Shown here: one piece after another, positions 4,515 through 29,350 of the stretch
Layout of the letters: each line of letters begins with the position of its first letter
Position numbering within the stretch: position 1 is the first letter of the stretch
Origin: Gammaproteobacteria bacterium
GTDB taxonomy: Bacteria; Pseudomonadota; Gammaproteobacteria; Steroidobacterales; Rariloculaceae
Direction of reading: 5' to 3'
DNA length: 41,778 bases
Assembly: GCA_035760685.1 (NCBI GenBank)
Contig: DASTSM010000098.1
Span: forward strand, 1 to 41,778
Position numbers and translations under genes: made by a program
Notes under the pieces: generated by a model
The model's input: only the letters and a program-made list of their open reading frames with translations
The model's database searches: none
What the model was told of the DNA's origin: nothing

Positions 4515-4688
4515 GGCTATGACAGGGCATTTTGCAGTGGCACGTTTCCCAGGAACCCGGTTAAAGTCTTGGCGTCGCGAGTTTCGGCTTCGGTACCCTA
4601 TCTATATACGAGCCGAATGTTGTAAGCGTAAAATTCTCTGGCTGGAAGCATAAGAGCAAGCAGCAAAACACAATGAGGGAAAGACTTC

Positions 4689-6767: not shown

Positions 6768-7724
6768 ATGCAAATGATAAGTGTTTTGCACTATGCGGCC
6801 CGCCGACCGGCGATCCTGGCCGGCCTAGCGGCCCTCGTATGTGCCGCCGCTCCGAGCGCCAGGGCGCAAGACGATCTTCTCCCGAAAGGCGATGCCGTGG
6901 TCCAGCCCTCGCCCGAGAAGCAAAAAATGGTCGACCTCGGCGTCCAGTACAAGACGGCGGAGGGCCTCTACGACCACTTCAAGGAGCAGGCGCACGGCGG
7001 ACAGCCGTTGACCTGGCAGAAGGTGCCGGACTGGACCGGATTGTGGACGCGCGAGGCGAGCGTGTTCTTCTTCGACCCCGATCAAGCGCCGGGAACGAAC
7101 CCGACGGCCAAGCTCACGCCCGAATACGAAAAGATGTTCAAGGCGAAGATCGACCGGGTACGCCATGGCATCGAGTACGATCCCCTCAGCATGTGCAACC
7201 CGGCCGGTATGCCGCGCTGGCTCGTCGAGCCGTTCCTTCGGGAATTCGTCGTGACGCCGGCGCAGACTTATCTGATCACCGAGCAGATGAACGAGGTCCG
7301 GCGCATCTACACCGACGGCCGCGCGCATCCCTCCAAGGAGGACGCGTATCCGCTCTGGGAGGGCGACTCCATCGGTTTCTGGGACGGCGATGAGCTCGTC
7401 ATCTGGACGAGCCAGATGCGGGCCGGCCAGTACCAGCGCATTCAGCCGGAATACAGCGAGCAGGTCGAGGTCGTCGAGCGGTGGCGCAAGACCGACGACC
7501 GCTCGATCACGGCCGACGTCTGGATCTACGATCCGCCGGCCCTCGTCGAGCCCTGGTACACTAAGCAGGTGTACAAGAAAGTCGATGACCAGAACAAGAG
7601 CTTGAGGATTCGTTACTGGGACTGCAACGAGAATCAGAACAATACGGTCGTCCCGAACGCCGAAGGCACCTCGGATTTCAAGGACTTCACGTTCACGAAA
7701 AAGGACGACGACAAGCAGGAATGA
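6768..7724 (+). CDS. Secreted hypothetical protein, homologous to the C-terminal half of the fused protein at 20812..21816
   Basis: The ATG at 6768 (or 6774) follows AGGAGA at 6761-6766. The ORF-track start at 6561 gives an Arg-rich non-coding-like extension. The signal peptide is MQMISVLHYAARRPAILAGLAALVCAAAPSARA|QDD. Motifs shared with 20812..21816 include C-x-P..P, R..Y.DGR.HP, G.SIG.W.G..LVI.T and a C-terminal Cys. Confidence 0.8.
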   Translation: MQMISVLHYAARRPAILAGLAALVCAAAPSARAQDDLLPKGDAVVQPSPEKQKMVDLGVQYKTAEGLYDHFKEQAHGGQPLTWQKVPDWTGLWTREASVFFFDPDQAPGTNPTAKLTPEYEKMFKAKIDRVRHGIEYDPLSMCNPAGMPRWLVEPFLREFVVTPAQTYLITEQMNEVRRIYTDGRAHPSKEDAYPLWEGDSIGFWDGDELVIWTSQMRAGQYQRIQPEYSEQVEVVERWRKTDDRSITADVWIYDPPALVEPWYTKQVYKKVDDQNKSLRIRYWDCNENQNNTVVPNAEGTSDFKDFTFTKKDDDKQE

Positions 7725-7740
7725 CGACAAGCAGGAATGA
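7709..7740. repeat. Perfect 16-bp tandem duplication (CGACAAGCAGGAATGA x2) spanning the stop codon of the 6768..7724 gene
   Basis: Positions 7709-7724 and 7725-7740 are identical. The first copy contains the TGA stop at 7722-7724. Confidence 0.9.
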
Positions 7741-7764
7741 GGCTTGGACCGTAAGGAGAGTGAC

Positions 7765-8151
7765 ATGAGAAAACTGCTCGCAGCGGCGCTCGGAAGCACG
7801 GTGATGCTGTCCACCGCCGGTTTCGCCCACCATTCGTCCGTGATGTTCGACGACCAGAAGGAAGTCACGCTTCACGGCACCGTCAAGGAATTCCAGTACA
7901 CGAACCCGCATTCCTGGCTGCTCGTCGACGTGAAGGGCGACGACGGCACGGTGACGACATGGGGCTTCGAGGCCGAGGGCCCGAGCACGCTGATGCGCGC
8001 GGGCATTCATCGGGGCGATCTGGCGCCGGGCACGGCCCTCACGATCACCGGACATCCGATGAGGGACGGCCGGCCCGCCGCGCAGTGGATCAAGGCGACG
8101 CTCGACAGCGGCAAGGTCCTCGACCCGCGCGCCGGCTTCCAAGTCAAGTAA
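7765..8151 (+). CDS. DUF6152-like small secreted protein (mature N-terminus predicted HHSS...)
   Basis: The ATG at 7765 follows AAGGAGAG (7753-7760). The signal peptide is MRKLLAAALGSTVMLSTAGFA|HHSSVMFD. It shares HHS..MFD..KE.T..G.V......NPH and PGD..T with the N-terminal half of the 20812..21816 protein. The family name is assigned from memory of the HHS..MFD / NPH pattern. Confidence 0.8.
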   Translation: MRKLLAAALGSTVMLSTAGFAHHSSVMFDDQKEVTLHGTVKEFQYTNPHSWLLVDVKGDDGTVTTWGFEAEGPSTLMRAGIHRGDLAPGTALTITGHPMRDGRPAAQWIKATLDSGKVLDPRAGFQVK

Positions 8152-8468: not shown

Positions 8469-11400
8469 ATGAACATGAACGCTGCTCGTGCGCTCGCGCC
8501 GCGAGCGAAACGGTTACGACTGTCCTCGATGGCGCGCAAAGGCATGCTGCTTCCGCTCGCGCTGTCGAGCGTCGCCGTGTCGGTCTCCGTCGCGCTGACC
8601 GGCCAGGCGTACGCCCAGGAATCGCAACAGGGCCCGCAGGGCGTCGAGGAGGTCACGGTCACGGGCTCGCGCATCCAGCGCACGTCGGGCTTCACGAGCC
8701 CGGTGCCCGTGACCGCCGTGACTACCGAGGAGCTCACGCAGTACCAGCCGAGCACGACGATGACCGATCAGCTGGCCCAGCTGCCGCAGTTTTTCCAGAC
8801 GCAAAGCGCCCAGCGCGGCGGCGGCGCGTTGTTCGGAAGCGCCGGCGGAAGCTACCTGGACCTGCGCGGCTTCGGTCCCCAACGCACTCTGATCCTGCTG
8901 GACGGCGCGCGTGTCGTGCCCGCGGATCGTAACGGCAACGTCAACGTCGACAACTTCCCCACCGTGCTGCTGCGCAGCGTCGAGGTCGTCACGGGCGGCG
9001 CGTCGGCCGCGTACGGCGCCGACGCGCTCGCGGGCGTCACGAACTTCGTGCTGAACCGCGACTTCCAGGGCCTCGACGTCAATGTCCGGGGCGGCCGCAC
9101 CGAGGTCGGCGACGGCAACAACTACGAGGTCAGCGTCGCGGGCGGCACCAAGCTCACGGACCGCTGGCGCATGATCGGCTCGATCGAGAATCAGCACATC
9201 GACCAGATCCAGCGCGACCCCGCGACGCTCGGCAGCTGGTTCAAGCGCTACGGCATCGTGGCGAATCCGGCCTACGTGACGGGCGACAACTCGCAGCCCA
9301 TGCGGCTCGTGCTGCCGAACGTCTATTCGACGGTCCACTCACCGACGGGCAGAATCGCGCAGGGCAAGGACCCAGCGGGCAAGGTCTGCGGCACGGCGGG
9401 CGCGACTTGCACGGGGCCGGCCTTCTCGATGACCGGCCTTCAGTTCACCTACGACGCGAGCGGCGTCACTCCTTTCATCAACGGCGACGTCGTCGGCGCC
9501 TCGACGGGCAACACGGCGGACACGCAAGGCACGGGCAGACAGGCCGAAATCGCGAACGATGCGTTTGCGGGCGGTCCCTTCGGAGCCGAAGTGGCCCGGC
9601 GGAACCTGTTCACGGCCTTCACTTTCGACGCGACCGACAAGCTGCGCCTCACGTTCGATCTCTTGGGCTCCCAGGTCGAATCGAATCAGCACGATCTGCG
9701 GGGCATCCCGCACGGCACGTCGCCTTGGAACTTCGAGATCTTCAGGGAGAACCCGTACCTGCCCGACAGCGTGCGTCAGGCCATGTACGACCAGAACGTC
9801 GAGTCGTTCATTTACCAGAAGCAAGGCCAGGTCCTCGGCCAGGCCGGCAACTACGACGACCACGAGGAGCAGCGCAACCAGTTCGACACGTTCAACTTCG
9901 CGGTCGGCATCGACAAGGATCTCTTCGACGGCGGCAACTGGAACCTCAAAGTGCGGCTGCAGCGCGGCCAGACGCGAAAGTACACGGCCGTGCTCAACGA
10001 GCTGCGCGTCGACCGCGAGTTCTTGGCGATGGATGCGGTCGAGATCTACGCGGACCGCCGCGATCTCGATGGCGACGGTATACCCGACGTCGTGTCTGAA
10101 GCCGACCACGGAACGGGCATCGTCATGTGCAACGTGCAGCGCTACAACCCGACCCAGGCGCAGCTTCAGGCCGCCGTCGCCGGCATTCTCGTCCCGGCGC
10201 CGCAAGGCGACGACTCGCTCGGCGGCCCCGAGGATCGCGTCCCGATCCCGGGCCCCGTCGGGCCCGACAACACGATCCGCGACTGCGTGCCGATGAACGT
10301 GCTCGGCCAAGGCAACGTCACGCCGGACGCCGCGTCGTACGTCACGTCGCCGAAGGAGGGCCGCTCCGTCGTGACCCAGGAGTTCGCCGAGACCCTGCTG
10401 AGCGGAGACATCTTCAAGGGCATCGGCGCGGGTCCCTTCTCGATGGCCGGAGGCACTACCTACCGCAAACAGCACTTCTGGCAGCGCGGCTATCCGGTCG
10501 AGCTCATGGCCTACGGGCCGCCCACCAATGCGCCCAACATCGGCATCCGGGGCATCTCGGGCGGCTACACGGGCGGCAGCCCGAACCTGCACGAGTTCTC
10601 GACGGTGCCCGCGATCAAGGGCGGCTACGACGTCTGGGAGGCCTTCACCGAGTTCAACCTGCCCCTCTGGCAGTCCGGCCCCCGCAACCTGACGCTCGAC
10701 CTCGCCGGACGCTACTCCGACTACTCGACGAGCGGCGGCATCACCTCGTGGAAGACCGGCCTCGACTTCTCCGTGGCCAAGCCTGTGCGCCTGCGCGGCA
10801 CCGTATCGCGCGACGTGCGTGAGCCGACGTTCTCGGAGCGGTTCGACCTCCAAGGAGGCGGCGGCAACGTCAACGACCCGAGGCAGGGCAACAAGAACGT
10901 CGAGATCACGGTCACGACGGGCGGCAACCCCGACCTGAAGCCCGAGAAAGCGGACACGGTCACGACCGGGTTCGTGCTGCAGCCGCAGAAGATCCCGGGC
11001 TTCCAGTTCTCGGCGGACTGGTACCGCATCGACCTCTCCGACGCGGTCGGCCAGCTCGGTCAGCAGAACATCGTGAACGGCTGCTTCCTCCAGAACAATC
11101 AGGACCTCTGCAGCCTGGTATCCCTCGACGTGTTCGGCGAAATCGGCACCGTGCGGAACGTGTTCCTCAACATCGACAGGGCCAAGGTCCGGGGCATCGA
11201 CTACGAGGTGCTCTTCAACGCGCAGCCCGACTTTTTCTCGAACGCGGACGAGTCGTTGAGCTTCCGCCTGCTGGCGGGAAGGCTCCTCGAGGACAGCCGG
11301 ACGGTGACGGCTGCGAGCGGCGCGCAGACGACGACCGACCTCGCGGGAACCTACTTCAGGCCGGACTTCTCGGCCATCGCGAGCGTGCGGTACCAGGTCG

Positions 11401-11762
11401 GCGCCTTCGCCGTGAACTTGCAGCAGCGCTACATCCCGGAGAGCTCTTTGGCCGATACGGCGACGTCGGGGCCGTACATCCAGTGGGAGCCGGGCGTGCA
11501 GGTCGCGCCGGGTCAGATCACGCTCAACGACGCGACCGTGCAGTCCAAGATGTATACCGACCTCGGCTTCGCATACACCTCGGATCTCGCGGGCGGCCGG
11601 CGCTGGAGGACGTCGCTGACGGTGACGAACCTCTTCGACGTCGATCCGCCCATCGTCGCGAACTTCGGACAGCGCTTCAGCTCCCAGGGCCCGGGCGCGA
11701 CTCCGAACGACTACGACGTGTACGGGCGCAGGTACTCGCTGGCCTTCGACTATAGCTTCTGA
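8469..11762 (+). CDS. TonB-dependent receptor
   Basis: 1097 aa. Signal sequence and plug region: EEVTVTGSRIQRTSGF, LDLRGFGPQRTLILLDGARVVP, SVEVVTGGASAAYGADALAGVTNFVLN. The C-terminal barrel ends YGRRYSLAFDYSF. The N-terminus is long, so the in-frame ATG at 8529 (MARKGMLLPLAL..) is an alternative start. Confidence 0.95.
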   Translation: MNMNAARALAPRAKRLRLSSMARKGMLLPLALSSVAVSVSVALTGQAYAQESQQGPQGVEEVTVTGSRIQRTSGFTSPVPVTAVTTEELTQYQPSTTMTDQLAQLPQFFQTQSAQRGGGALFGSAGGSYLDLRGFGPQRTLILLDGARVVPADRNGNVNVDNFPTVLLRSVEVVTGGASAAYGADALAGVTNFVLNRDFQGLDVNVRGGRTEVGDGNNYEVSVAGGTKLTDRWRMIGSIENQHIDQIQRDPATLGSWFKRYGIVANPAYVTGDNSQPMRLVLPNVYSTVHSPTGRIAQGKDPAGKVCGTAGATCTGPAFSMTGLQFTYDASGVTPFINGDVVGASTGNTADTQGTGRQAEIANDAFAGGPFGAEVARRNLFTAFTFDATDKLRLTFDLLGSQVESNQHDLRGIPHGTSPWNFEIFRENPYLPDSVRQAMYDQNVESFIYQKQGQVLGQAGNYDDHEEQRNQFDTFNFAVGIDKDLFDGGNWNLKVRLQRGQTRKYTAVLNELRVDREFLAMDAVEIYADRRDLDGDGIPDVVSEADHGTGIVMCNVQRYNPTQAQLQAAVAGILVPAPQGDDSLGGPEDRVPIPGPVGPDNTIRDCVPMNVLGQGNVTPDAASYVTSPKEGRSVVTQEFAETLLSGDIFKGIGAGPFSMAGGTTYRKQHFWQRGYPVELMAYGPPTNAPNIGIRGISGGYTGGSPNLHEFSTVPAIKGGYDVWEAFTEFNLPLWQSGPRNLTLDLAGRYSDYSTSGGITSWKTGLDFSVAKPVRLRGTVSRDVREPTFSERFDLQGGGGNVNDPRQGNKNVEITVTTGGNPDLKPEKADTVTTGFVLQPQKIPGFQFSADWYRIDLSDAVGQLGQQNIVNGCFLQNNQDLCSLVSLDVFGEIGTVRNVFLNIDRAKVRGIDYEVLFNAQPDFFSNADESLSFRLLAGRLLEDSRTVTAASGAQTTTDLAGTYFRPDFSAIASVRYQVGAFAVNLQQRYIPESSLADTATSGPYIQWEPGVQVAPGQITLNDATVQSKMYTDLGFAYTSDLAGGRRWRTSLTVTNLFDVDPPIVANFGQRFSSQGPGATPNDYDVYGRRYSLAFDYSF

Positions 11763-14449: not shown

Positions 14450-16402
14450 ATGACATCGGTCTGGACGCGCGAAGTCGACCGGCGGGCCGCGAAGGCGGAG
14501 ACGCGCACCGTCCTGCTCATCGCGGAGTCCCCGGCTCTGCGGGCCTCGATCGCTCGTCATCTCGAGCCGATGCCCGTCGCGCTCGTTCAGGGCGAATCGA
14601 TCGAGCAGTGTCTCGCCGCGGCCGAAGCCGACGCGCCCGCTGCGATCCTGCTCGACGACGCCTTCGGCGAAACCCGGATCGCGGTTGTGCTCGAGGCCAT
14701 GAGGCAAAAGCTTGCGCTATCCGGCACCCCGATCATCCTGTTGATCTCGGCCGACGACGACGAGACGGTCTCACGCGCCTTCGCACTCGGCGCCGCGGAC
14801 TACTTGAGGAAGCCCGTCCGCGCCCCCGAGATCAAAGCGCGCGTGAGCGCCGCGGTCGAGACGCGGGCGCTCCTCACGCGGCTCGGCCGGCAAGCGCAGC
14901 ACGATACGCTCACGGGCCTGCCGAACCGCGCGCTCGTCGCGGCTCGAATCGAAGAGGCGATCCGAAAGGCGAGCAAATCGCCCGACCGCCACTTCGGCGT
15001 CCTGTTTCTCAACTTCGATCATTTCCGGAACGTGAACGACAGTCTTGGATACGCCGGCGGCGACGAGCTCCTGAGGCAAATTGCCGTTCGCCTCCGCCGT
15101 AATCTCCGCGTCGAGGATGCCGTCGGTCACGACGCTCGGCCGCCGCAGAGCACTGCCGCCGGCGCCGAGGCGAGCAGCGCAGACGAGGGAGGGCTCGAGA
15201 ACGGTCCCGCCGGCGCAGAAGCAGACGAGACGGCCGGCACGGCGGCATCGGAGGCCGCCGGGACGGCGCCTTCCACGGTCGCCCGCGTCGGCGGAGACGA
15301 ATTCGTCGTGCTTCTGGATGGGCTCGCGAATCCCGCGGACTCGGCCGTCGTCGCGCACCGCCTCACCGATCTCTTCTGCCGCAGCTACCGCATCGGAGGA
15401 CACGAGGTGTTCGCGACGGCCAGCGTCGGCGTCGTCACGAGCGAAGCCGGCCACACGAACGCCGAGGAGCTCCTGCGCGACGCCGAGACCGCCATGCGCG
15501 AGGCCAAGGCCGCCGGCAAGCGGCGCTACTTGGTATTCGAGCGTTCGATGCGCACGCGCCGGGAGCGGCGCACGTGGATAGAGAACGACCTGCACAAGGC
15601 CGCCGATCGCGAAGAGCTGTTCCTCATGTATCAGCCCATCGTGTCGCTCGGAACGGGACGGCTCGAGAGCGTCGAAGCGCTGCTGCGCTGGCGCCATCCG
15701 CGGTTCGGGCTCGTGGGACCCGACGAGTTCATTCCGATAGCGGAGGATACGGGGCTCATCGTGCCGATCGGCGAATGGGTGCTCGAGGAGGCGTGCCGCC
15801 AGCTGGCGCGCTGGCGCGCCGTGCCCGGCCGCCCGCCGCTGCGCATGAGCGTGAACGTCGCGCGCCGGCAGCTGCTGACTCCGAACCTGGCCGCGCGCGT
15901 CGAGGACGCGATCCGCTCGGCCCGCATGCTTCCGGCGGACCTCGTCCTCGAGGTCACGGAGAGCCAGATGATGACGGACGTGCAAACGACGATGCGCGCG
16001 CTGAACTCGCTCGGCGAGATCGGCGTCAAGATCAGCATGGACGACTTCGGCACCGGCCACTCCTCGCTCGCCTGCCTGCGCGATTTCCCCTTGAGTCACG
16101 TCAAGATCGACCGATCCTTCGTGACGCACATCGGCGCGGGCCGCGATCTCATGGCCGTTCTCAACGCGATCATCGAGCTCGCGCACGACCTCGGCATCGA
16201 GACGGTGGCCGAAGGCATCGAGACGATCGAGCAGCTCGCGAGCCTCCAAGCCCTGAACTGCGACTACGGACAGGGCTTCTACCTCTCGCGCCCGCAGCCG
16301 GCGGCCGCCCTGCCCGACTTGCCCATGCCGTCGATCAACGAGGAGAAAGCCGCGCGCGACGACACCGCGCATCCGGCCGAGGCGCGCGGAGATACCGAAT
16401 GA
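14450..16402 (+). CDS. Response-regulator receiver / GGDEF / EAL protein (c-di-GMP turnover)
   Basis: 650 aa. The REC-like N-terminus has LLIAES, ILLDDAFGE, ILLISAD and YLRKPV. The GGDEF domain has DTLTGLPNR, LNFDHFRNVNDSLGYAGGD and RVGGDEF. The EAL domain has VEALLRW, EVTES, DDFGTGHSSL, EGIET and QGFY. A ~55-aa Ala/Glu/Gly-rich insertion sits just before GGDEF. Confidence 0.9.
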   Translation: MTSVWTREVDRRAAKAETRTVLLIAESPALRASIARHLEPMPVALVQGESIEQCLAAAEADAPAAILLDDAFGETRIAVVLEAMRQKLALSGTPIILLISADDDETVSRAFALGAADYLRKPVRAPEIKARVSAAVETRALLTRLGRQAQHDTLTGLPNRALVAARIEEAIRKASKSPDRHFGVLFLNFDHFRNVNDSLGYAGGDELLRQIAVRLRRNLRVEDAVGHDARPPQSTAAGAEASSADEGGLENGPAGAEADETAGTAASEAAGTAPSTVARVGGDEFVVLLDGLANPADSAVVAHRLTDLFCRSYRIGGHEVFATASVGVVTSEAGHTNAEELLRDAETAMREAKAAGKRRYLVFERSMRTRRERRTWIENDLHKAADREELFLMYQPIVSLGTGRLESVEALLRWRHPRFGLVGPDEFIPIAEDTGLIVPIGEWVLEEACRQLARWRAVPGRPPLRMSVNVARRQLLTPNLAARVEDAIRSARMLPADLVLEVTESQMMTDVQTTMRALNSLGEIGVKISMDDFGTGHSSLACLRDFPLSHVKIDRSFVTHIGAGRDLMAVLNAIIELAHDLGIETVAEGIETIEQLASLQALNCDYGQGFYLSRPQPAAALPDLPMPSINEEKAARDDTAHPAEARGDTE

Positions 16403-17340
16403 GCTCGAGCGCGCCGCGGCGCGCGGCTCGCGACGTCGTCGTCGAGCAGGCCGTCGGCGGCGCCAAGCGCTTGGCGATGCTGCCCGAGGCGACGATGCGC
16501 ATCCTCGAGCTCCTGCAGTCGGAAGCCTATGGCGCCGCCGAGCTCGAGAAGGTCGTCTCGACCGATCCGGTGCTCTGCATGCAGATTCTCAAAGTCGTCA
16601 ATTCCGCCTTCTACCGGAGCCCGCAGGAGATCGCGTCGATCCGTCGAGCCGTCGTCATGCTCGGCGCCGCGGCGGTCAAGAACATCGCGCTCGCGGCAAG
16701 CCTCGGCCGAGGGCTCCGGGGAATCGAATCGGCCGGGCTCTCGGCCCGCGAGCTTTGGCGCCATTCGCTCGCCGTCGGCGCGGGCGCAAAGCTTGCGGCC
16801 GCGGCGGCGCGGCGCGTGCCCGCGGATACGGCCTTTCTCGCCGGCCTGCTGCACGACGTGGGCTTCATGCTCGAGCTCCGTCTCGACGCGGCGCGGCTCG
16901 CCCGGCTCACGACGAGCCTCGACGGCGGCGAGCGCCGTGCCGACGGCGATTCTCGCGAGGACCGTGCGGGGGATTCAGGCGAGGACGGGGCGACCCGCGC
17001 ACCCCACGCGCTGCTCGCAGAGGAAGCGGCCTTCGGCGCCACGCACGAGGACTTCGGCCGAGGTCTCTGCGAGCGGTGGGGATTGCCCGCCGACATCGCC
17101 CTCGCGGTCGGACGCCATCACGTCGCGTCGGCCAACGAGGACGCCTCCGATCTCGCTTGCGCCGTGCATATTGCGGACGTCGTCGCGGCCCGCCTCGCGC
17201 TCGGATTCGCGGCGGACGCCCCCGATCCGGAGCTCCATAACGCGGCGCTCGAGCGGCTCGGCCTCACGGCCTCGGCCCTCGAGGACATCGAACGGGCGGT
17301 GCCGGACGCGACCGGCGAGCTGCTTCGGATCCTCGGCTAG
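16399..17340 (+). CDS. HDOD-domain protein
   Basis: The ATG at 16399 overlaps the upstream TGA (ATGA). It is the in-frame 3' part of track ORF 15574..17340. HDOD pattern: LPEATMRILELLQSE..AAELEKVVSTDPVLCMQILKVVNSAFY, IRRAVVMLG, LWRHSLAVG, AGLLHDVG, THEDFG..L...WGLP and HH. An acidic insertion is present (GGERRADGDSREDRAGDSGEDG). Confidence 0.85.
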   Translation: MSSSAPRRAARDVVVEQAVGGAKRLAMLPEATMRILELLQSEAYGAAELEKVVSTDPVLCMQILKVVNSAFYRSPQEIASIRRAVVMLGAAAVKNIALAASLGRGLRGIESAGLSARELWRHSLAVGAGAKLAAAAARRVPADTAFLAGLLHDVGFMLELRLDAARLARLTTSLDGGERRADGDSREDRAGDSGEDGATRAPHALLAEEAAFGATHEDFGRGLCERWGLPADIALAVGRHHVASANEDASDLACAVHIADVVAARLALGFAADAPDPELHNAALERLGLTASALEDIERAVPDATGELLRILG

Positions 17341-18254
17341 GCGCTGCCGAGCTCTTCCGTGAGCGGCGCGATCCGCCCCGCCGGAACGAGACCCGCCGCC
17401 TGGAGGAGCGCGGCCGCGCGCTCGAGCGCCTCGGCCTCGAAACCGACGCGGCCGGCCCATTGCGTCCGCTGCAGCCATTCCGCGGCGTCGCCTTGTGTAA
17501 GACCGAAGCGCCGGGAGATCTCGGCGGCCGCGCCGGGGTCGGCGCGAAATTTCGCGGCGGCGTCCAGCACGGCGGCGAGCACGCGGGCGATCGCATCGCT
17601 CATCGTCGCCAACGCGGAATCCGACGCGGCGACGACGAACGCGGGCCAAGGCGCGCCGAATTCGCCCACGCGCCGAAACCGCCCCGAATCGACGAGCGGT
17701 TTCGTCATAAACTTTTCCCAGAGGAACACGTCGGCCGTGCGGCGCTCGAAGGCGCGGACGGCGCCGTCGAGGTCGTCGACCGCGACGAACCGCAGCTCGT
17801 CGAACGGCCAGCCGCGTTGCTGTGCGAGTGCGAACGCCATGAGATGCGAGCCCGATCCGAAGCGGCTGATCGCGTAGCGTGCGCCGCGCACGTCGTCGAG
17901 CGCGCGGAACGCGGAGCCGGCGGGCACGTGGACTCCCCAGAGCAGCGGCGACTCGGTGTAGACGCTCACGATGCGGAACGCGCCGCCGTTCGCGATGCCG
18001 GCGACGGCGCCCTCGGTCAGCAGCACGCCGAGATCGAGCCGGCCGGCCTGCAGCGCTTCGCGCATCGCGCCCGAGCCGCCGGGGTAATCCTCCCACGATG
18101 CGTCGACGCCCTCGCGCGCCAGCGGCCCCGAGTCGAGTAGCCGGCGCCAGGGCAGATTGAAGTGCTCGGGGACGCCTCCGATTCGGAGCCTCACGACGGC
18201 GCGATCTCGGCGCTCGAGTCTCGGCGCGCTCGCGTCAAGCTCGGGCCGGCGCAA
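17337..18254 (-). CDS. NMT1/THI5-like (SsuA/PhnD-type) substrate-binding-fold protein, apparently without signal peptide
   Basis: 305 aa as given in the track. The pattern LRIGGVPEHFNLPW...GGSGAM..AL..G.LD...LLTEG is typical of this periplasmic-binding-protein fold. The start is uncertain: the ATG at 18254 overlaps the upstream gene by 20 nt, and the GTG at 18194 (VRLRIGG..) is an alternative. Confidence 0.7.
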   Translation of the reverse strand: MRRPELDASAPRLERRDRAVVRLRIGGVPEHFNLPWRRLLDSGPLAREGVDASWEDYPGGSGAMREALQAGRLDLGVLLTEGAVAGIANGGAFRIVSVYTESPLLWGVHVPAGSAFRALDDVRGARYAISRFGSGSHLMAFALAQQRGWPFDELRFVAVDDLDGAVRAFERRTADVFLWEKFMTKPLVDSGRFRRVGEFGAPWPAFVVAASDSALATMSDAIARVLAAVLDAAAKFRADPGAAAEISRRFGLTQGDAAEWLQRTQWAGRVGFEAEALERAAALLQAAGLVPAGRIAPLTEELGSA

Positions 18255-18840
18255 TGACCCACGAGTAGAGCGTCTCGGCGCAGGACGGCCGCGCGGCGGG
18301 AGCCGTCACGCGTGCGCTCTTGATCTCGGTTCGCCCGCGCGGACACTGCGCGACGACCTCGGCCATGCGCGCGGACCAATCCTCGCGAGACGCGTCGAGC
18401 GGCAGGGCGGCCTCGAGCATCGCGAGCGGACCCGACAGCCGATGCTCGAGCGTGCCGTCCGCCGTGGGGACGTGCTCGCCGCGAAACACGGCGCGCATGC
18501 GCTGATCCCAGGCGAGTCGCTCGAGGCAGAAAAACGCGCCGTGCGCGGTGAGCCCGGCGATCGCGACGGGCGCGCCGGGACGCTCCCCGCCCCGCCATCG
18601 ACGATCGAGCTCGTGGTACCAGAACGACGTGATGTCGCCCTGTATCTCGTGTGCCGGCAAGCCGAGATCGCGGGCTCGGCGCGCGAACGCGACGCTGTCT
18701 TCGAAGCGGGAGTCGTAGACGACCTTGTAGAGCGGCACGCCGTGCGCCGTCGCCGCGCCTGTCGCGCGCGCGGCGCGTGAAGCCAGGGGCCAGGCTCCGG
18801 CCGCGATGCCGATCTGAAGGAATTCTCGACGATTCGTCAT
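18235..18840 (-). CDS. Tat-signal hypothetical protein
   Basis: 201 aa. The twin-arginine signal is MTNRREFLQIGIAAGAWPLASRA. Composition is coding-like. I see no CxxCH or other cofactor motif. It lies between the PVADH-like gene and the SBP-like gene on the same strand. Confidence 0.7.
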   Translation of the reverse strand: MTNRREFLQIGIAAGAWPLASRAARATGAATAHGVPLYKVVYDSRFEDSVAFARRARDLGLPAHEIQGDITSFWYHELDRRWRGGERPGAPVAIAGLTAHGAFFCLERLAWDQRMRAVFRGEHVPTADGTLEHRLSGPLAMLEAALPLDASREDWSARMAEVVAQCPRGRTEIKSARVTAPAARPSCAETLYSWVIAPARA

Positions 18841-18961: not shown

Positions 18962-20815
18962 TCACTTGCCGTCGACCGAGAACGCGAGCAGGACGTTCCC
19001 CGGCGTCCCGCCCGCGTTCGGATAGCCCGAGTTCACGAAGACCATGCCGCCGCCGACGACGGGTCCGGGTCCGTCGAGCGAGCCTCCGTGCCCCGGCACG
19101 CCGTCGACGCTGTCGTACTCGCGCACCGTGTCGAAGTCCCAGATCACGCTTCCGTCCTCGGTCGAGTACGCGCGCAGATGTCCGTCGAGCGAGCCCGAGA
19201 ACACGACGCCTTCCAGCGCGGTCACGGCGGCGAGCTGAGCGGGGCTGCAGCGTGCGCGAGCCGCCGGACAACCGGCCGGCGGCGTGTACCAAAGCCGCTT
19301 GCCGTCGGCGAGACGCAGCGCGAACATGCCGCCGCCGACGGCCGGATCGGCCTCCGTCGCGCCCGTGTTCGCGACCGGCACACGTCCGAGGTCCGAAAGC
19401 GCGACGTAGACGTTGGCCGCGTCGGCTGCAGAGCCCCATTGAATGCCGCCGAGGCTTCCGCCGCGCCCGATTCGCACTTGCCAGCGGATTCGCCCGTCCT
19501 GATCGGGATCGACCGCGTGCACCACGCCCGACTTCTGTCCGGCGATGAGTGCCCGCCCGCCGCCGGCCGGCAACGACACGAGGATCGGCGATGCGCCGAA
19601 GTCGAAATCGGGCCCGCTCTGCTCGGTGCAGTTCGTTCGATCCGGGAGCCGGCATGCGACCGTGTAGACATCGGACGAGGTCATCTGCCTCGACCAGAGG
19701 ATGCGGCCCGTGTCGAGATCGAGGGCGACGAACGCGTCGCTCAGGTCCGTCGCGGGCTCGCTGTAGTTGTTGCCCGTCGTCACGTAGATCGCGTTTCGCG
19801 CGGGATCGACGGCGGGGCTCGACCAGATCGGAGCGCCGGACGGCCCCCAAAGCTGCACGCCGCCCGCGCTCTTGCGCGTCGGGTGCGGCACGTCGACGGT
19901 GTAGGTCTTCCAGACGAACGCGCCCGTCGCCGCGTCGAGCGCGACGAGGCTGCCGCGGAAACGGCAGCACTCGTAGTCGGGCGAGGCCGCCGCGTTCTCC
20001 TCGTGCGACGAGACCGGCACATAGAGCCGACCTTGATAGAACACGGGCGAGCCCGTCAGCGTGGCGAGCGGGAAGTCGTCGACTCGGACCTTCCAGAGCG
20101 GCCGGCCGGTGTCCGCGTCGACGGCATGCATGAAGCCCGCCGCATCGCCGAAGAAGGCCGCACTGTGCCGGCCTTCGGGCGTCTCGATCTCGGCGACGCT
20201 GACGGCGGTCCGGACCCCGGCGCCGACGTTCCTGACCCAGTGCACGCAGCCCGTGGACGCGTCGAGCGAGTAGACGTTCCCGCTTTCGGTGCCCGTGAAA
20301 AGCCGCCCGCCTGCGAGCGCCGGATGGCCGTACACGCGAATCTCGTGCGGAAACGCGAAGGCCCATTTGAGCGCGAGCCGCGGCACGTCGGCGGCGCGAA
20401 GACCCGCCGCCTCGGCACTGCGAAATCGCGTGTTGGCGAGGTCGGCGCCCCAGCCGCTCCAAGTCGGCCCTTGCAGCTTGAGCGGCGGCGCGTCGGCCGC
20501 GCACAGCGCGGCGGCCGGGGGCAAGGCGCTCGAGGCATCGGCCAACGGCTCGCCCGCCACGAACTCGCTGACGAGGCGGCGCTGATCCGCGGACAGGCCC
20601 ACGGCCATCGTGATCATGGAGCCGCGCTCCAAGGCCTCGAGCACGCGCTCGGGCGTGAGCGACGCGAGCGTCTCGCGCGGCGGCGCGCGCTCGAGCGCGG
20701 CGTCGTGGCAGACGGAGCAACGCTCCGCATACAGCCTCGCCCCTTCCTGGGCCTGCGCGGCAGCCGCGACGCCGACGACGAGGCCGGCGCCCCAGCGAAG
20801 CACGCTCGTCTTCAT
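18962..20815 (-). CDS. Quinohaemoprotein: N-terminal cytochrome c + PQQ beta-propeller dehydrogenase (polyvinyl-alcohol-dehydrogenase-like)
   Basis: 617 aa. A signal peptide is followed by the haem-c site LYAERCSVCHD. A repeated propeller pattern is present (G.LF.GT.SG.VYSLDA.TG...W, MHAVDADTGRPLW, LVALDAATGAFVW, FVALDLDTGRILW, LRAYSTEDGSVIW), along with a vicinal Cys-Cys (YECCRF). The start ATG overlaps the stop of the upstream gene (ATGA at 20812-20815). Confidence 0.85.
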   Translation of the reverse strand: MKTSVLRWGAGLVVGVAAAAQAQEGARLYAERCSVCHDAALERAPPRETLASLTPERVLEALERGSMITMAVGLSADQRRLVSEFVAGEPLADASSALPPAAALCAADAPPLKLQGPTWSGWGADLANTRFRSAEAAGLRAADVPRLALKWAFAFPHEIRVYGHPALAGGRLFTGTESGNVYSLDASTGCVHWVRNVGAGVRTAVSVAEIETPEGRHSAAFFGDAAGFMHAVDADTGRPLWKVRVDDFPLATLTGSPVFYQGRLYVPVSSHEENAAASPDYECCRFRGSLVALDAATGAFVWKTYTVDVPHPTRKSAGGVQLWGPSGAPIWSSPAVDPARNAIYVTTGNNYSEPATDLSDAFVALDLDTGRILWSRQMTSSDVYTVACRLPDRTNCTEQSGPDFDFGASPILVSLPAGGGRALIAGQKSGVVHAVDPDQDGRIRWQVRIGRGGSLGGIQWGSAADAANVYVALSDLGRVPVANTGATEADPAVGGGMFALRLADGKRLWYTPPAGCPAARARCSPAQLAAVTALEGVVFSGSLDGHLRAYSTEDGSVIWDFDTVREYDSVDGVPGHGGSLDGPGPVVGGGMVFVNSGYPNAGGTPGNVLLAFSVDGK

Positions 20816-21816
20816 TCGTCCGTGAGATAGCGTTTAGCGACGCCGGGATCGCACTCGAGATTCGTCGGCGCGAGGTCCGGCCGGTATTCCCACTGCGAGT
20901 AGAACTCGACCGGCTTCTCGAGATAGTCCGGATCCTCGAGCGCGACCTTGTAGTTGATGTGCCGCGCGTCCTGCGTCAGAGAGAGACGCTCGACGAGATG
21001 CTTGCGCGGACCGGACGGCAAACCGAGCGCATTGCCTTCCCGATGATCCGCGAAATCGACCGTGTCGATGACGAGCGTATTGCCTTCCCAATGGCCGATC
21101 GAGTGGCCGTGCAACGTGCGCTGCCCGTTCTCCGGATGCCCGCGCCCATCCATGTACACGGCGCGCTTCGACGACATCCAATCGACGTTGAACACGATCG
21201 TGTCGTCGTCGACCTCGATGGTGCGGACGACGGGATAGAGCATGAGCGTCGGAGCCGTCACGGGGATGCACCTCGCATGCGTCGCATCGCTCACGTCGAA
21301 ATCGGCGAGGGCTTTCTTTCCCGCCTCGGTCAACGGCCCGCCGCGCACGCTCGACGTGAAGGCGAAGAAACCATCCCGCGGAGCGAGCCAGGTCCCCGCC
21401 AAGCCCTTCGCCCGCTCCGCGCTCGGCGCCTTGATGCTGCGCGACGCGATGAAGAGCGGCAACACGCTGCCGTCCGCGGTCACGATCTCTCGGCCGAGAA
21501 CGATGTGCCCCTCGCCGCGGCGGCTCGGATTCGCGTGGACCGTGACGCGATCGCCGGGATGGAGCGACTCCTTCGCGAGGCCGAGCGGCTGCAGCACCGA
21601 AGCCGCCCCGGCCTCGATCTCCTGCTCGCGCTCGGCGCCGTCCGGGCCCGCCGTGCGCACCGTCATATACACGTGCGGATTCTTCCAGTCGTACCGCGTG
21701 ACGACGCCGTCGAAGGTGATCTCCTTGCTCGTGTCGAACATCGCGGCGCTGTGATGCGCCGCGGCCGCGTTCCCGATGAGCAGAGCGGCGAAAACGCTCA
21801 TCACCCGAAAGCCCAT
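20812..21816 (-). CDS. Secreted fusion protein: DUF6152-like N-terminal domain + domain homologous to the 6768..7724 protein
   Basis: The ATG at 21816 (alternative 21801) lies inside track ORF 20812..22560. The upstream part of that ORF is Arg-rich and antisense to nothing coding. The signal peptide is MGFRVMSVFAALLIGNAAAA|HHSAAMFD. The N-terminal half aligns with 7765..8151 and the C-terminal half (ARCIPVTAP...RAVYMDGRGHP...GHSIGHWEGNTLVIDT...LECDP) aligns with 6768..7724. Confidence 0.8.
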   Translation of the reverse strand: MGFRVMSVFAALLIGNAAAAHHSAAMFDTSKEITFDGVVTRYDWKNPHVYMTVRTAGPDGAEREQEIEAGAASVLQPLGLAKESLHPGDRVTVHANPSRRGEGHIVLGREIVTADGSVLPLFIASRSIKAPSAERAKGLAGTWLAPRDGFFAFTSSVRGGPLTEAGKKALADFDVSDATHARCIPVTAPTLMLYPVVRTIEVDDDTIVFNVDWMSSKRAVYMDGRGHPENGQRTLHGHSIGHWEGNTLVIDTVDFADHREGNALGLPSGPRKHLVERLSLTQDARHINYKVALEDPDYLEKPVEFYSQWEYRPDLAPTNLECDPGVAKRYLTDE

Positions 21817-22023: not shown

Positions 22024-23778
22024 ATGGGGCGTTCGCCTTCCCGCGCGCCGGCTCTGCTCCTCGGCGCCCTGCTCCTTCCGACCGCGCGCGCCGGCGGCCT
22101 CGAGCCCGTGACCGACGCGATGCTGCGCAATCCCGATCCCGCGGATTGGCTCATGTTTCGCAGGACGTACGACGATTGGGGCTACAGCCCCCTCGACGAG
22201 ATCGATCGGACCAACGTCGCGCGTCTCGAGCTCGCATGGTCCCGCGACTTGAACGACGCGTCCTCGCAGGAAGGTACGCCGCTCGTCCGCGCCGGCGTCA
22301 TGTACTTTCCGGAGCCGATGGACGTCGTGACCGCGATGAACGCGGCGACGGGCGAGACGCTCTGGCAGTACCGCCGAAAGCTGCCCGAGGACGTCGGCCG
22401 CTACGTCCCGAACCCGCAGACCAACCGCAACCTCGCCGTCTACGGCACGCTCGTCATCGACGCCGGCTCCGACGACTTCATCTATGCGCTCGATGCCGAG
22501 ACGGGCCGGCTCGTCTGGGAAACGAAGATCGTCGACTACAAGACGCATCCGGCCAAGCAAGGCTCAGGCCCGCTCGTGGTGAACGGCAAGCTCGTCTCGG
22601 GCCGGAACTGCATGCCCCAAGGCGGCCCCGAAGCATGCGTGATCACGGCGCACGACGCGCGCTCCGGCAAAGAGCTATGGCGCCTGCACACGATTCCCCG
22701 CCCCGAGGATCCTCACGGCGACAGCTGGGGCGGCGTGCCCTACGAGCAGCGCTGGCACGTCGGCGCGTGGATGGTGCCGAGCTACGATCCCGCCCTCGGC
22801 CTCGTCTACATGGGCACGTCCGTGACGGCGCCCGCGCCGAAGTTCATGCTGGCGGGCAACGACAAGACTTACCTCTATCACAACTCGACGCTCGCCATCG
22901 ATCCCGACGACGGCAAGATCGTCTGGTACTACCAGCATCTCGTCGATCATTGGGATCTCGACCACACCTTCGAGCGCATGCTCGTCGACACGGCCGTCGC
23001 GCCCGACCCGGCGGAGGTGCCGTGGATCAATCCGGGCCTGAAACCCAAGGAACGCCGCCGCGTCGTGACGGGTATTCCGGGCAAGACGGGCATCGTCTAC
23101 ACGCTCGACCGGGAGACGGGCGAATTCCTCTGGGCGCGGCCGACCGTCGAGCAAAACGTCGTGGCAAGCATCGACGGCGCGACCGGAAAGGTCGTCGAGA
23201 ACGAGGCCATGCACTTCACGGCCGCGGGCCAGACGCGGTTCGTCTGCCCGACGACCAACGGCGGCAAGAACTGGCCGGCCGGCGCGTACAGCCCGCGCAC
23301 GAAGGCGATGTACTTCCCGCTCGCGAACACGTGCATGAGCACGACGTCGGTCGCGGATAAGCCGAAGCCCGAGCTCATCTACGCGATCGACAGCGAGACG
23401 GTCGTGGCACCCGGGGCGGCGGGCGTCGGCACGCTTCGCGCGATCGACGTCGAGACGGGCAGAACGCGCTGGCGCTACGACGAGCGCGCGGGCCTCATGT
23501 CTCTCGTCGCGACGGGCGGCGACCTGCTGTTCGGCGGAGACGTCGCGGGCAAGTTCCGGGCATACGACGCCGAGACGGGCAAGGTGCTCTGGGAGACGGA
23601 TCTCGGCTCGCCCGTCACGGGCTTCCCGATCACGTTTGCGGCGGCCGGGCGTCAGTACGTCGCGGTCAGCACGGGGCGATCGAATTTGACAGGGGCCTTG
23701 GCGCGGCTTACGCCGGATGCGCGGGCCGCGGGCGACGGCGCGAAACTGTTCGTGTTCGCGCTCCCCGCCGCGAAATAG
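22024..23778 (+). CDS. PQQ-dependent dehydrogenase, methanol/ethanol family
   Basis: The ATG at 22024 follows AAGGAGAG (22012-22019), in frame inside track ORF 20959..23778. A signal peptide is followed by VTDAMLRNPDPADWLMFRRTYDDWGYSPLDEIDRTNVARLELAW, the typical N-terminus of this family. Propeller repeats are present (FIYALDAETGRLVWE, ITAHDARSGKELW, LAIDPDDGKIVW, TLRAIDVETGRTRW, FRAYDAETGKVLWE), as is the active-site region DHWDLDH. Confidence 0.9.
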   Translation: MGRSPSRAPALLLGALLLPTARAGGLEPVTDAMLRNPDPADWLMFRRTYDDWGYSPLDEIDRTNVARLELAWSRDLNDASSQEGTPLVRAGVMYFPEPMDVVTAMNAATGETLWQYRRKLPEDVGRYVPNPQTNRNLAVYGTLVIDAGSDDFIYALDAETGRLVWETKIVDYKTHPAKQGSGPLVVNGKLVSGRNCMPQGGPEACVITAHDARSGKELWRLHTIPRPEDPHGDSWGGVPYEQRWHVGAWMVPSYDPALGLVYMGTSVTAPAPKFMLAGNDKTYLYHNSTLAIDPDDGKIVWYYQHLVDHWDLDHTFERMLVDTAVAPDPAEVPWINPGLKPKERRRVVTGIPGKTGIVYTLDRETGEFLWARPTVEQNVVASIDGATGKVVENEAMHFTAAGQTRFVCPTTNGGKNWPAGAYSPRTKAMYFPLANTCMSTTSVADKPKPELIYAIDSETVVAPGAAGVGTLRAIDVETGRTRWRYDERAGLMSLVATGGDLLFGGDVAGKFRAYDAETGKVLWETDLGSPVTGFPITFAAAGRQYVAVSTGRSNLTGALARLTPDARAAGDGAKLFVFALPAAK

Positions 23779-23809: not shown

Positions 23810-23884
23810 GATCAGGCGGATCAGGCCGATCACGCGGCCGGATCAGGTTGATCAGGCGGCCGGATCGGGCCGATCAGGCGGCCT
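23810..23884. repeat. GATC-rich tandem repeat (three 22-bp units plus a partial unit; 7 GATC sites in 75 bp)
   Basis: Partial unit: GATCAGGCG (23810-18). Full units: GATCAGGCCGATCACGCGGCCG (23819-40), GATCAGGTTGATCAGGCGGCCG (23841-62) and GATCGGGCCGATCAGGCGGCCT (23863-84). The array lies between convergent genes, and the last unit overlaps the final codons and stop of the desaturase gene. Confidence 0.85.
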
Positions 23885-25052
23885 GCTCTCGATAGCCGCG
23901 CAGCTGCCGCGCGAACTCCTCGAGCGCCGCGATACCGCTCCCTTCCGCGTCGGCGCACCAAGCCTGAAGGCGTGCGAGCATCTCGTGCTGCGTTTTCGCC
24001 TGCTGAGTCCAGAGGTCCTTGAGCCGCTGCCGGAACTCGTAGATCGTCTGAAGCGTGTGATTCGCCTGGAGCGCTTCCTTGAGATGCCGGCGGTTCGCCG
24101 CGTCGAGCGCGAGGTGCTCCTTCGAGATGAGCCTGCGCACGCGCTGAATCCTGCGCTTGGCCTCCCCCTGCAGGTAGCGCGCCTCGGCGCGCAGCACGGG
24201 GCGGACGACCTCGGTGCCGTACAGCTTCAGCACGTGAAAGCGGTTCGCGACCACGGCGCGCAGCATCTCCATGTCGATGACGTGCGAGCCCGCGAGGAAC
24301 GAGGTCTTCGGCGCCGTGCGCCGGACCGTAGCGAGGCCGAGCGACGCGAGGATCCTGATGTAGAGCCACCCGATGTCGAGCTCCCACCATTTGTTGGAGA
24401 GCCGCGCCGAGCTGCCGTAGGCGTGATGGTTGTTGTGGAGCTCCTCGCCGCCGATCAGGATGCCGAAAGGCACGATGTTGCGCGAGGCGTCCTGCGTCTC
24501 GAAGTTTCGGTAGCCCCAGTAATGACCGACGCCGTTGATGACGCCGGCGGCCCAGAACGGGATCCAGACCATCTGAACAGCGAAGATGACCGCGCCCGCG
24601 ACGCCCCCGAACAGCAGCAGATCGGCGACGAGCATGACACCGAGCCCGAGGAAGCGATGCCGGCTGTACACTTTGTGCTCGACCCAGTCGTCGGGCGTAC
24701 CGGCGCCGTAGGCGGCGATCGTCTCCGGGATCATGGCCTCGTGCCGGTACAGGAACGTCCCGCCGAAGAGCACTCGCCAGATGCCCTCCTGCTGAGGGCT
24801 ATGCGGATCGTTCTCCGATTCGCATTTCGCGTGATGCTTGCGGTGGACCGCGACCCACTCGCGCGTGACCATGCCCGTCGTGAGCCAGAGCCAGAGCCGA
24901 AAGAAGTGCGCGACCGCCGGATGGAGGCTCAACGCGCGATGCGCCTGGTGGCGATGCAGATAGATCGTGACCGAGGCGATCGTCACGTGCGTGAGCGCGA
25001 GCGCGGCGACGATGTATCCGACGACCGAAAGATTCAGCAATCCGTCCGACAA
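23874..25052 (-). CDS. Membrane fatty-acid (acyl-lipid/acyl-CoA) desaturase, DesA-like delta-9 type
   Basis: 392 aa. Three histidine boxes are present: HRHQAH, HRKHH and HNNHH. The N-terminal half is hydrophobic. A long helical C-terminal extension is present, as I recall for Pseudomonas DesA-type enzymes. Confidence 0.88.
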   Translation of the reverse strand: MSDGLLNLSVVGYIVAALALTHVTIASVTIYLHRHQAHRALSLHPAVAHFFRLWLWLTTGMVTREWVAVHRKHHAKCESENDPHSPQQEGIWRVLFGGTFLYRHEAMIPETIAAYGAGTPDDWVEHKVYSRHRFLGLGVMLVADLLLFGGVAGAVIFAVQMVWIPFWAAGVINGVGHYWGYRNFETQDASRNIVPFGILIGGEELHNNHHAYGSSARLSNKWWELDIGWLYIRILASLGLATVRRTAPKTSFLAGSHVIDMEMLRAVVANRFHVLKLYGTEVVRPVLRAEARYLQGEAKRRIQRVRRLISKEHLALDAANRRHLKEALQANHTLQTIYEFRQRLKDLWTQQAKTQHEMLARLQAWCADAEGSGIAALEEFARQLRGYREQAA

Positions 25053-28764: not shown

Positions 28765-28773
28765 GGGGTCACC

Positions 28774-29253: not shown

Positions 29254-29350
29254 GGAAGTGCTCCTGTGGGAGGATAAATCGGCGACGGAGGTTAGCTTTA
29301 GACAGGCGGGAAGTCCAGTGCCGGCGATGCGCTCCCGAGTAATCTCCAGT

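Follow-up and report, generated by a model that had tools for sequence, protein, structure and literature searches.

Split and fused forms of a probable periplasmic protein unit that pairs DUF6152 with an uncatalogued, predicted fatty acid-binding protein-like barrel

Introduction

The fatty acid-binding protein (FABP)-like fold is best known from animal intracellular lipid-binding proteins. When the +1 residue of a secreted protein is invariant, the free amino terminus is usually put to use, as in the histidine-brace copper proteins. Features reminiscent of both groups are found in the subject of this report, two protein families that are encoded as a split gene pair (6768..8151) and as one fused protein (20812..21816) in a 41,778-nucleotide stretch of gammaproteobacterial DNA (GenBank assembly GCA_035760685.1, contig DASTSM010000098.1, family Rariloculaceae). 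This whole stretch is referred to below as the window. One family is DUF6152, predicted to be an oligonucleotide/oligosaccharide-binding (OB) fold; the other, its partner, is referred to as the barrel.

Like FABP, CRABP and other calycins, the barrel is predicted to have ten antiparallel strands, the first of them bearing a G-x-W motif, with a helix-turn-helix lid inserted after strand A and before strand B. Unlike FABP and CRABP, it is periplasmic, has a conserved pair of cysteines, extra helices, a polar core (R..Y.DGR.HP) and an obligate OB-domain partner, and it gave no Pfam match at E values up to 1 when the split partner and the C-terminal domain of the fusion were searched, the lipocalin and FABP models being among those unmatched. 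DUF6152 resembles the histidine-brace copper proteins (lytic polysaccharide monooxygenases (LPMOs), CopC, YcnI and PmoB) in that predicted cleavage exposes an invariant histidine at position 1 and a second conserved histidine lies elsewhere in the chain; in DUF6152 there is a conserved glutamate in addition, and the motif is His-His. It differs from them in being a predicted OB barrel, not an Ig- or cupredoxin-like sandwich, and in having no copper genes nearby. The small five-stranded OB barrel is shared with the periplasmic proteins CusF, YgiW/BOF and CcmE, but none of these was among the top 50 Foldseek matches of DUF6152, and the conserved residues differ. Accessory genes of quinoproteins (MxaJ/XoxJ-type proteins, the SoxYZ-like carrier, relay metallohydrolases) are a further point of comparison, as the genes studied here lie beside periplasmic pyrroloquinoline quinone (PQQ) dehydrogenases in a sizeable minority of loci. 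Unlike those accessory genes, most loci lack a PQQ enzyme, and none of the three window proteins matched any NCBIfam model, those of known quinoprotein-associated families included.

The only catalogue entry for DUF6152 is that of a domain of unknown function, and there is none for the barrel family. No system is known to join an OB domain with a processed His-His end to a calycin barrel.

Results

Homology of the fused protein and the split pair

The genes and domains concerned are as follows.

6768..7724, plus strand: split partner gene, 318 amino acids (aa); barrel domain preceded by a signal peptide (aa 1-33) and an extension of about 50 aa; unmatched in Pfam and NCBIfam
7765..8151, plus strand: split DUF6152 gene, 128 aa; signal peptide aa 1-21, predicted mature N-terminus His-His at 7828-7833; Pfam family, AlphaFold2 model with a predicted local distance difference test (pLDDT) score of 93
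20812..21816, minus strand: fused gene, 334 aa; the signal peptide is followed by the DUF6152 OB domain, a linker and the FABP-like barrel; stop codon TGA at 20812-20814
21757..21816, minus strand: signal peptide of the fused gene, aa 1-20, ending GNAAAA before HHS; by inspection
21751..21756, minus strand: codons of His21-His22, the predicted first two mature residues; conserved in 195/195 (H1) and 194/195 (H2)
21451..21756, minus strand: DUF6152/OB-fold domain, aa 21-122, containing Asn46-Pro47-His48 (21673-21681) and Glu68; Pfam E 3.1e-25, AlphaFold2, Foldseek
20815..21402, minus strand: barrel domain, aa 139-334; GxW strand, helix-turn-helix lid, nine more main strands, Cys183 and Cys322; secondary structure (DSSP) of the AlphaFold2 model, Foldseek, homology to the product of 6768..7724

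The ATG of the fused gene at 21816 is preceded by a GAGGGG ribosome-binding site. Its product begins with the Sec-type signal peptide MGFRVMSVFAALLIGNAAAA, directly followed by HHS; judged by inspection, Sec-type signal peptides are present in the fusion, the split partner and the split DUF6152 protein alike. At the split locus the partner gene comes first and the DUF6152 gene second, with a gap of 41 nucleotides and AAGGAG before the ATG at 7765. This gene order is the opposite of the domain order in the fusion, as the initial annotation of this DNA had stated.

The same annotation held that each half of the fused protein aligns with one product of the split pair, and both alignments were reproduced. 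The DUF6152 halves were 35% identical over 92 aa (BLASTP, E 3e-18), and both proteins matched Pfam PF19649 (DUF6152; cut-off 27 bits), the fused protein over aa 14-103 with 88.5 bits (E 3e-25) and the product of 7765..8151 with 111.3 bits. The C-terminal domain of the fusion was 25% identical to the product of 6768..7724 over 269 aa (BLASTP, E 2e-12). Hidden Markov models (HMMs) built here for the two barrel families cross-matched (model of the fusion C-domain on the split partner, 45 bits; model of the split partner on the fusion, 28 bits), and comparison of the two family alignments with hhalign gave a probability of 97.4% and E 9.5e-12 over 157 columns. Each half of the fusion is homologous to one of the separate proteins, with alignment statistics far beyond chance. 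The sequence motifs first listed for the two proteins are present, except that the shared motif of the C-terminal domain reads G.SIG.W.G..LVI.T and not GHSIGHW. Assignment of the families by profile search succeeded for DUF6152 in both proteins; the partner, or barrel, belongs to no Pfam or NCBIfam family.

An exact 16-nucleotide tandem duplication, two copies of CGACAAGCAGGAATGA, lies at 7709-7740 (plus strand) of the window and spans the stop codon of the partner gene.

Pairing of the two families across genomes

The split-partner profile was scanned against one genome per species. This yielded 80 loci, all from metagenome-assembled genomes (MAGs) of Gammaproteobacteria (Candidatus Rariloculus, Steroidobacteraceae, Pseudohongiellaceae and SAR86 included), Caulobacteraceae and Acidobacteriota. 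A DUF6152 gene followed the partner on the same strand in 73 of the 76 testable loci (own HMMs, six-frame open reading frames (ORFs)), a count that is not fully independent, many loci coming from MAGs of related soil Gammaproteobacteria. The distance between the matched domain segments was 73-344 nucleotides. Three Caulobacteraceae loci were without DUF6152, and four further loci were cut by a contig end. Across all fetched loci (individual loci are cited by L number), 136 of 155 stand-alone DUF6152 ORFs had an adjacent barrel gene, a rate biased upward by retrieval of the loci via the barrel domain; in 97 of these the barrel gene came first (C>N) and in 39 the DUF6152 gene came first (N>C). 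The other 19 had a barrel gene beside them in divergent orientation.

Three layouts therefore exist: the barrel-first pair, the DUF6152-first pair and the fusion, in which DUF6152 is N-terminal. Many single loci hold several paralogous DUF6152/barrel pairs, and pairing persists across phyla and down to 30-35% identity. Because of the pairing rates (73/76 and 136/155), the existence of fused genes and of split pairs in both orders, and the confident AlphaFold2 model of the whole fusion described below, the two families very probably work as one periplasmic unit. This was the central proposal of the initial annotation, and the survey of co-occurrence strongly supports it; the families were adjacent in nearly every testable genome locus, contrary to an absence of co-occurrence.

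Members of the families were also seen in other settings. L011 (4671-7989, minus strand) and L035 (4754-7685, minus strand) hold a DUF6152 paralogue (mature start HHSFAVYD) with no barrel gene on its own strand, directly upstream of a TonB-dependent receptor gene and divergent from the partner/DUF6152 pair. A distant barrel-like gene of 287 aa without an adjacent DUF6152 gene is found in L011 (9302-11908, minus strand), L018 and L039, followed by a gene for a metallo-beta-lactamase-fold protein and then one for a 250-aa protein. The metallo-beta-lactamase-fold protein, which in L011 is encoded near DUF6152/barrel pairs, is weakly similar to 'quinoprotein relay system zinc metallohydrolase 2' (83 bits; cut-off 280).

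Predicted folds

Structure prediction of the fusion, proposed at the outset as a check, was carried out with AlphaFold2 from the fused-family alignment and gave a confident model (pLDDT 91.6, predicted template modelling score (pTM) 0.86). For a two-domain chain, this pTM suggests a defined, fixed domain interface. Foldseek searches of the PDB matched the N-terminal domain to OB folds (LysRS N-domain, SSB, HIN) and the C-terminal domain to CRABP2, FABP1, SAHS4 and the dinoflagellate luciferase barrel (1vpr) with probabilities of 0.99-1.0. For CRABP2, FABP1 and SAHS4 the probability was 1.0, and target-normalised TM scores of FABP-type chains were 0.55-0.60. In the fusion model, strand 141-144, which bears G-T-W, is followed by helices 147-159 and 164-172 and then by nine main strands (DSSP). 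The barrel is thus modelled as a 10-stranded FABP/calycin-like fold with a helix-turn-helix lid.

DUF6152 modelled alone (pLDDT 93) had strands at 13-23, 28-36, 42-50, 70-78 and 84-92 and helices at 52-57 and 62-65. Foldseek gave a probability of 1.0 to SSB, PriB and the LysRS N-domain at TM 0.5-0.6. The domain is predicted to be a generic five-stranded OB barrel with a helix between strands 3 and 4; the domain-level Foldseek search returned generic OB folds only, and no specific relative among CusF, BOF, CcmE and TIMP. Sequence searches of the PDB with both profiles found no relative of the barrel family. Nine larger barrel-containing relatives had extra domains without Pfam matches, which gave no clue to function.

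Conserved residues

Conservation in DUF6152 was counted over 198 non-identical domains from about 160 loci. His-His directly followed an AxA-type signal-peptidase site, placed from the sequence, in 194 of the 198; the four exceptions were three contig-end truncations and one spurious ORF. Residues at the cleavage site (A, G or S at -1; A, V, S, L or T at -3) were those expected for signal peptidase I. In mature numbering, conservation was 195/195 for H1, 194/195 for H2, 198/198 for P27 and 197/198 for H28, followed by N26 (174/198, otherwise Ser), D8 (177/196) and E48 (165/192). The Pro-His, usually Asn-Pro-His, lies at the start of strand 2 and the mostly conserved glutamate near the end of the neighbouring strand 3. 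Since OB strands 2 and 3 form a hairpin, His28 and Glu48 should adjoin on one face. Taken together, the invariant His-His, Pro-His and glutamate point to a candidate N-terminal-histidine metal or ligand site.

In the barrel, G141 and W143 of the GxW motif were invariant in the fused set; in a mixed alignment of split and fused sequences the glycine (G91) was invariant and the tryptophan (W93) at least 90% conserved. Invariant or nearly so in both barrel clades were Cys...Pro...Pro, R..Y.DGR.HP, G.S.G.W.G..LV..T, a glutamate and an Asp-Pro. Each clade also had a conserved C-terminal cysteine.

Size and history of the families

Clustered at 90% identity, homologues numbered 1,234 for the fusion C-domain, 3,188 for the split partner and 4,579 for the split DUF6152 protein. 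Among the best 120 of the 1,234 fusion C-domain clusters, nearly all were proteins of about 335 aa with DUF6152, and in a metagenome scan for the fusion at least 592 were confirmed among the 600 matches listed. A mixed profile retrieved 21,187 clusters at 50% identity with E at or below 1e-3, and 7,067 with E at or below 1e-10. On these numbers, and with only 35% and 25% identity between corresponding parts, the fused form is a large and old family, and in the window the fusion and the split pair are ancient paralogues.

Among farther relatives of the fusion, many were DUF6152-first gene pairs, the same order as in the fusion. Judged by eye from the translated junctions, the barrel gene of these pairs begins at a separate start codon and in most cases encodes a separate signal peptide. 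When barrel domains were clustered, arrangement was clade-specific, with one large barrel-first clade, separate fused clades, and clades mixed for the two split orders. The large barrel-first clade corresponds to the split type of the window, which carries about 50 additional residues at its N-terminus. An origin of the fusion by joining of the reversed pair found in the window was rejected, given the separate old fused clades and the DUF6152-first split pairs elsewhere. Most likely the fusion arose from a DUF6152-first pair, which explains the reversed order relative to the window's split pair.

Recoding or readthrough joining the DUF6152-first pairs was considered and rejected as unlikely, as the stop codons were a mixture of TAA, TAG and TGA and the second gene has a start codon and, by inspection, usually a signal peptide of its own. 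The junctions of these pairs were in frame in 22 of 38 cases (about 13 expected), an excess that may reflect ancestry shared with the fused forms. Examples of in-frame junctions are L104, L107, L108, L110, L112, L113, L119, L136 and L144-L148, among others.

Gene neighbourhoods

Three further genes of the window form the immediate context of the fused gene and the split pair.

18962..20815, minus strand: cytochrome c plus PQQ-like beta-propeller gene, whose start codon shares the ATGA at 20812-20815 with the stop codon of the fused gene
22024..23778, plus strand: PQQ alcohol dehydrogenase, divergent from the fused gene; not at this position in the relative; context
8469..11762, plus strand: TonB-dependent receptor after the split pair; not at this position in L001; context

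On the minus strand of the window the fusion heads a predicted operon, in which it is followed by the cytochrome c-PQQ gene, a Tat-signal ORF of 201 aa and a gene for an NMT1/PBP-like protein. A search for RNA runs that could show co-transcription turned up no usable one; the DNA runs point to a soil metagenome as the origin of the material. The ATGA coupling of the fusion to the quinohaemoprotein gene, reported in the initial annotation, is present at 20812-20815. It is found also in L003, the single close relative with this locus examined, which lacks the divergent dehydrogenase. A generally conserved coupling was rejected, as it was seen only in the window and L003: of 43 fused genes tabulated from the fetched loci, four had a PQQ gene within 6 kb, one of them L003, and there was otherwise no direct adjacency. 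Eight loci with fused orthologues of at least 53% identity were examined, the window counted, and in 6 of them a PQQ gene was no more than about 5 kb away; the gene order varied, and esterases were common too.

More widely, 23 of the 63 loci that span at least 12 kb contained a PQQ homologue, as did 10 of 33 dereplicated groups. A Pfam census of 125 neighbouring ORFs in 21 diverse split loci was headed by PQQ (7), major facilitator superfamily (MFS) transporters (5) and cytochrome c (4). In 34 fused or DUF6152-first loci (130 ORFs) it gave PQQ 3-4, alpha/beta-hydrolases 4, and receptor-like outer-membrane barrels, LysR regulators and amidohydrolases 3 each. PQQ dehydrogenases are the commonest neighbour family, at about 30-37% of loci.

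The TonB-dependent receptor was rejected as a conserved partner, being absent from its position in L001 and rare among neighbours. In L001, the closest relative examined, the split pair is followed directly by SnoaL and FAD oxidase genes, with no TonB-dependent receptor. A jackhmmer search with the window's receptor found matches in only 4 of 164 sources (163 fetched loci and the window), the window itself included. The receptor was not among the top neighbour families of the 21 split loci, and receptor-like barrels appeared in about 3 of the 34 fused or DUF6152-first loci. The initial annotation had placed both copies in uptake/oxidation loci and described them as an accessory module of such loci. 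A receptor and a quinohaemoprotein gene do stand beside them in the window, but neither is generally conserved; the wider description is only loosely true, PQQ enzymes being the commonest neighbour, in about a third of loci, and receptors not being conserved. The conserved unit is the pair itself. Its surroundings are periplasmic catabolic islands, most often oxidative, with no fixed pathway.

Several further observations concern these surroundings. The window receptor (8469-11762, plus strand) looks like a lineage-specific insertion between the DUF6152 and SnoaL genes. 5' of the split pair, at 1062-6479 (plus strand), are genes for a giant FecR-TPR-beta-barrel protein, a MarR regulator and a GAF-GGDEF cyclase. 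Homologues occurred among the 80 genome loci (L001 and L004-L036 included) in 16, 17 and 26 cases, respectively, and the three genes look like a regulatory neighbourhood kept in the lineage of the window.

The window's PQQ alcohol dehydrogenase (22024-23778, plus strand) is closest to the Pseudogluconobacter enzyme 4cvb (E 2.5e-131) and has W-D-L-D where 4cvb has W-D-S-E. Such a D-x-D motif is associated with lanthanide-dependent enzymes. The 201-aa ORF with the Tat-type signal RREFLQ (18235-18840, minus strand), between the cytochrome c-PQQ and NMT1/PBP-like genes, had no family match. At the same position L003 has a 225-aa gene without a known family, then genes for an FAD_binding_4 oxidase and a cytochrome c, both not in the window.

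Membrane proteins of the DUF6644 family, encoded in tandem, with about four helices each and a weak similarity to DUF2214, lie beside pairs in L026 (4887-5970), L029, L038 (9330-10600), L044 and L047; the DUF6644 proteins of the window (28210-29397, minus strand) adjoin a LigB-type dioxygenase instead of a pair. A fatty-acid desaturase gene at 23874-25052 (minus strand) encodes a protein whose C-terminal part matches the Pfam transposase model DDE_Tnp_ISL3. The same architecture is found in L003 (6714-7886) and L174 (2562-3740), so it is not a recent insertion. An HbpS-like (PF03928) gene lies near fused orthologues in L171 (6084-6521), L172 (9898-10332) and L173 (9892-10326); in the window it is about 20 kb from the fusion, at 40993-41778 (minus strand), with PrpD and citrate synthase genes. 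The ORF at 16279..16974 (minus strand) looks spurious, and the plus strand over 16279-17340 appears HDOD-like by eye.

Discussion

The window appears to hold two versions of one module, the split pair (6768..8151) and the one-chain fusion (20812..21816). A two-part periplasmic module is put forward tentatively, in which the barrel would bind a small organic molecule and the OB domain would provide an N-terminal-histidine metal or ligand site. The split parts would be exported separately and then associate in the periplasm. The barrel would hold a small organic molecule, probably amphiphilic or anionic. The free N-terminal histidine, together with His2, His28 and Glu48, would form a metal- or ligand-coordinating site, and this site of the OB domain would act on the molecule in the barrel, sense it or hand it over. 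The module may take part in oxidative or hydrolytic catabolism in the periplasm, in many cases next to PQQ dehydrogenases.

Several points weigh against this proposal. The neighbours are a mixed set (PQQ dehydrogenases, alpha/beta-hydrolases, amidohydrolases, MFS transporters, LysR regulators) and so imply no single pathway, and no copper-handling genes stood out in the Pfam censuses of the 21 split and 34 fused or DUF6152-first loci. Known copper proteins with an N-terminal histidine have beta-sandwich folds, from which the OB fold differs. How H1, H2, H28 and E48 cluster, and where they lie with respect to the barrel mouth, is deduced from strand pairing only, and the conserved Arg, Asp and His of the barrel could be structural. 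The pairing rate on the DUF6152 side carries the upward bias noted above. No paper mentioning DUF6152 was found, in keeping with the earlier statement that neither family has a characterised function; Pfam, NCBIfam and the PDB likewise supplied none.

A passive carrier that shuttles substrates or products of low solubility between outer membrane and periplasmic enzymes, with the His-His serving for docking or pH gating only, is possible but unlikely. The FABP-like fold with its lid and GxW would suit such a role, as would the catabolic enzymes and transporters among the neighbours, and many paralogous pairs per locus would be expected of diversified binding specificities. The luciferase barrel domain 1vpr, among the Foldseek matches, is pH-gated by N-terminal histidines in the dinoflagellate enzyme. 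Against a carrier, a strictly invariant +1 residue, an invariant Pro-His and a conserved glutamate exceed the usual constraint of docking, and a conserved polar core is unusual in a promiscuous lipid carrier.

A copper oxidase or monooxygenase, with a histidine-brace-like copper site on the OB domain, a hydrophobic substrate in the barrel and electrons from the haem domain of the co-transcribed quinohaemoprotein, seems quite unlikely. It would account for the invariant histidine at mature position 1, the further invariant histidine and the conserved glutamate, and for the translational coupling of the fused gene to the cytochrome c plus PQQ-propeller gene in the window and L003. PQQ enzymes being the commonest neighbours is also consistent with it, and an analogy exists in LPMOs, which are activated by fungal PQQ pyranose dehydrogenase or by cellobiose dehydrogenase (CDH). 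That coupling is, however, confined to the window and one close relative, with PQQ genes within 6 kb of only 4/43 fused genes; the fold is OB and not of LPMO or CopC type, and the censuses contained no copper-related neighbours. The broader suggestion of a new class of periplasmic mononuclear-metal (copper-type) enzymes, having an OB fold with a His-His site, an FABP-like barrel for the substrate and, in some lineages, reduction by the quinohaemoprotein, is a shade less probable again. If true, such an enzyme would be a bacterial small-molecule counterpart of LPMOs and of the systems in which PQQ enzymes or CDH are their redox partners.

Metal trafficking of the kind carried out by CopC or YcnI with CopD, in which DUF6152 would bind copper or another metal and pass it to a membrane protein or enzyme, is improbable. 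The N-terminal histidine motif fits, some stand-alone DUF6152 genes are followed by same-strand TonB-dependent receptor genes (L011, L035), and the DUF6644 membrane proteins beside pairs in L026, L029, L038, L044 and L047 are a weak hint, DUF2214 being CopD-like. DUF6644 homologues were nevertheless found in only 8 of the 164 sources, and the Pfam censuses contained no neighbours of CopA, CusF or PCuAC type. Several paralogues within catabolic islands would be atypical of metal homeostasis, and the obligate FABP-like barrel would have no role.

Still less probable is a cofactor chaperone of quinoproteins, whose barrel would bind PQQ (an anionic aromatic tricarboxylate) or which would help to load calcium or a lanthanide into PQQ dehydrogenases. 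The association with these dehydrogenases, the conserved Arg, His, Trp and Tyr of the barrel and the D-x-D motif of the window's alcohol dehydrogenase are in its favour. Some two thirds of loci, though, lack a PQQ enzyme in the vicinity, and there are many paralogues per genome; moreover, histidine-rich sites are poor lanthanide ligands, and known quinoprotein-associated families of NCBIfam were not matched. Finally, the absence of any functional link, with similarity and adjacency due to chance or to local synteny of close relatives, has a negligible probability: many loci do come from MAGs of related soil Gammaproteobacteria, but pairing holds across phyla and at 30-35% identity, three gene arrangements exist with independent fused clades among them, and chance is excluded by the alignment statistics.

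The two-part module proposed here would belong to a large group. Sequence clusters of DUF6152 and the barrel together run to tens of thousands, from Proteobacteria and Acidobacteriota of soil, freshwater and marine habitats, and a genome often has more than one copy within its catabolic islands. Three features offer a concrete and testable way into this large uncharacterised periplasmic group: the obligate pairing, the invariant His-His at the processed end and the FABP-like fold. If the N-terminal histidine binds a metal, it would place such chemistry in a new structural context; if the unit is a carrier, it would be a new route by which poorly soluble substrates are moved across the periplasm to PQQ dehydrogenases and hydrolases. 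In either case, the findings support the creation of a new family for the barrel and the annotation of both genes as one unit.

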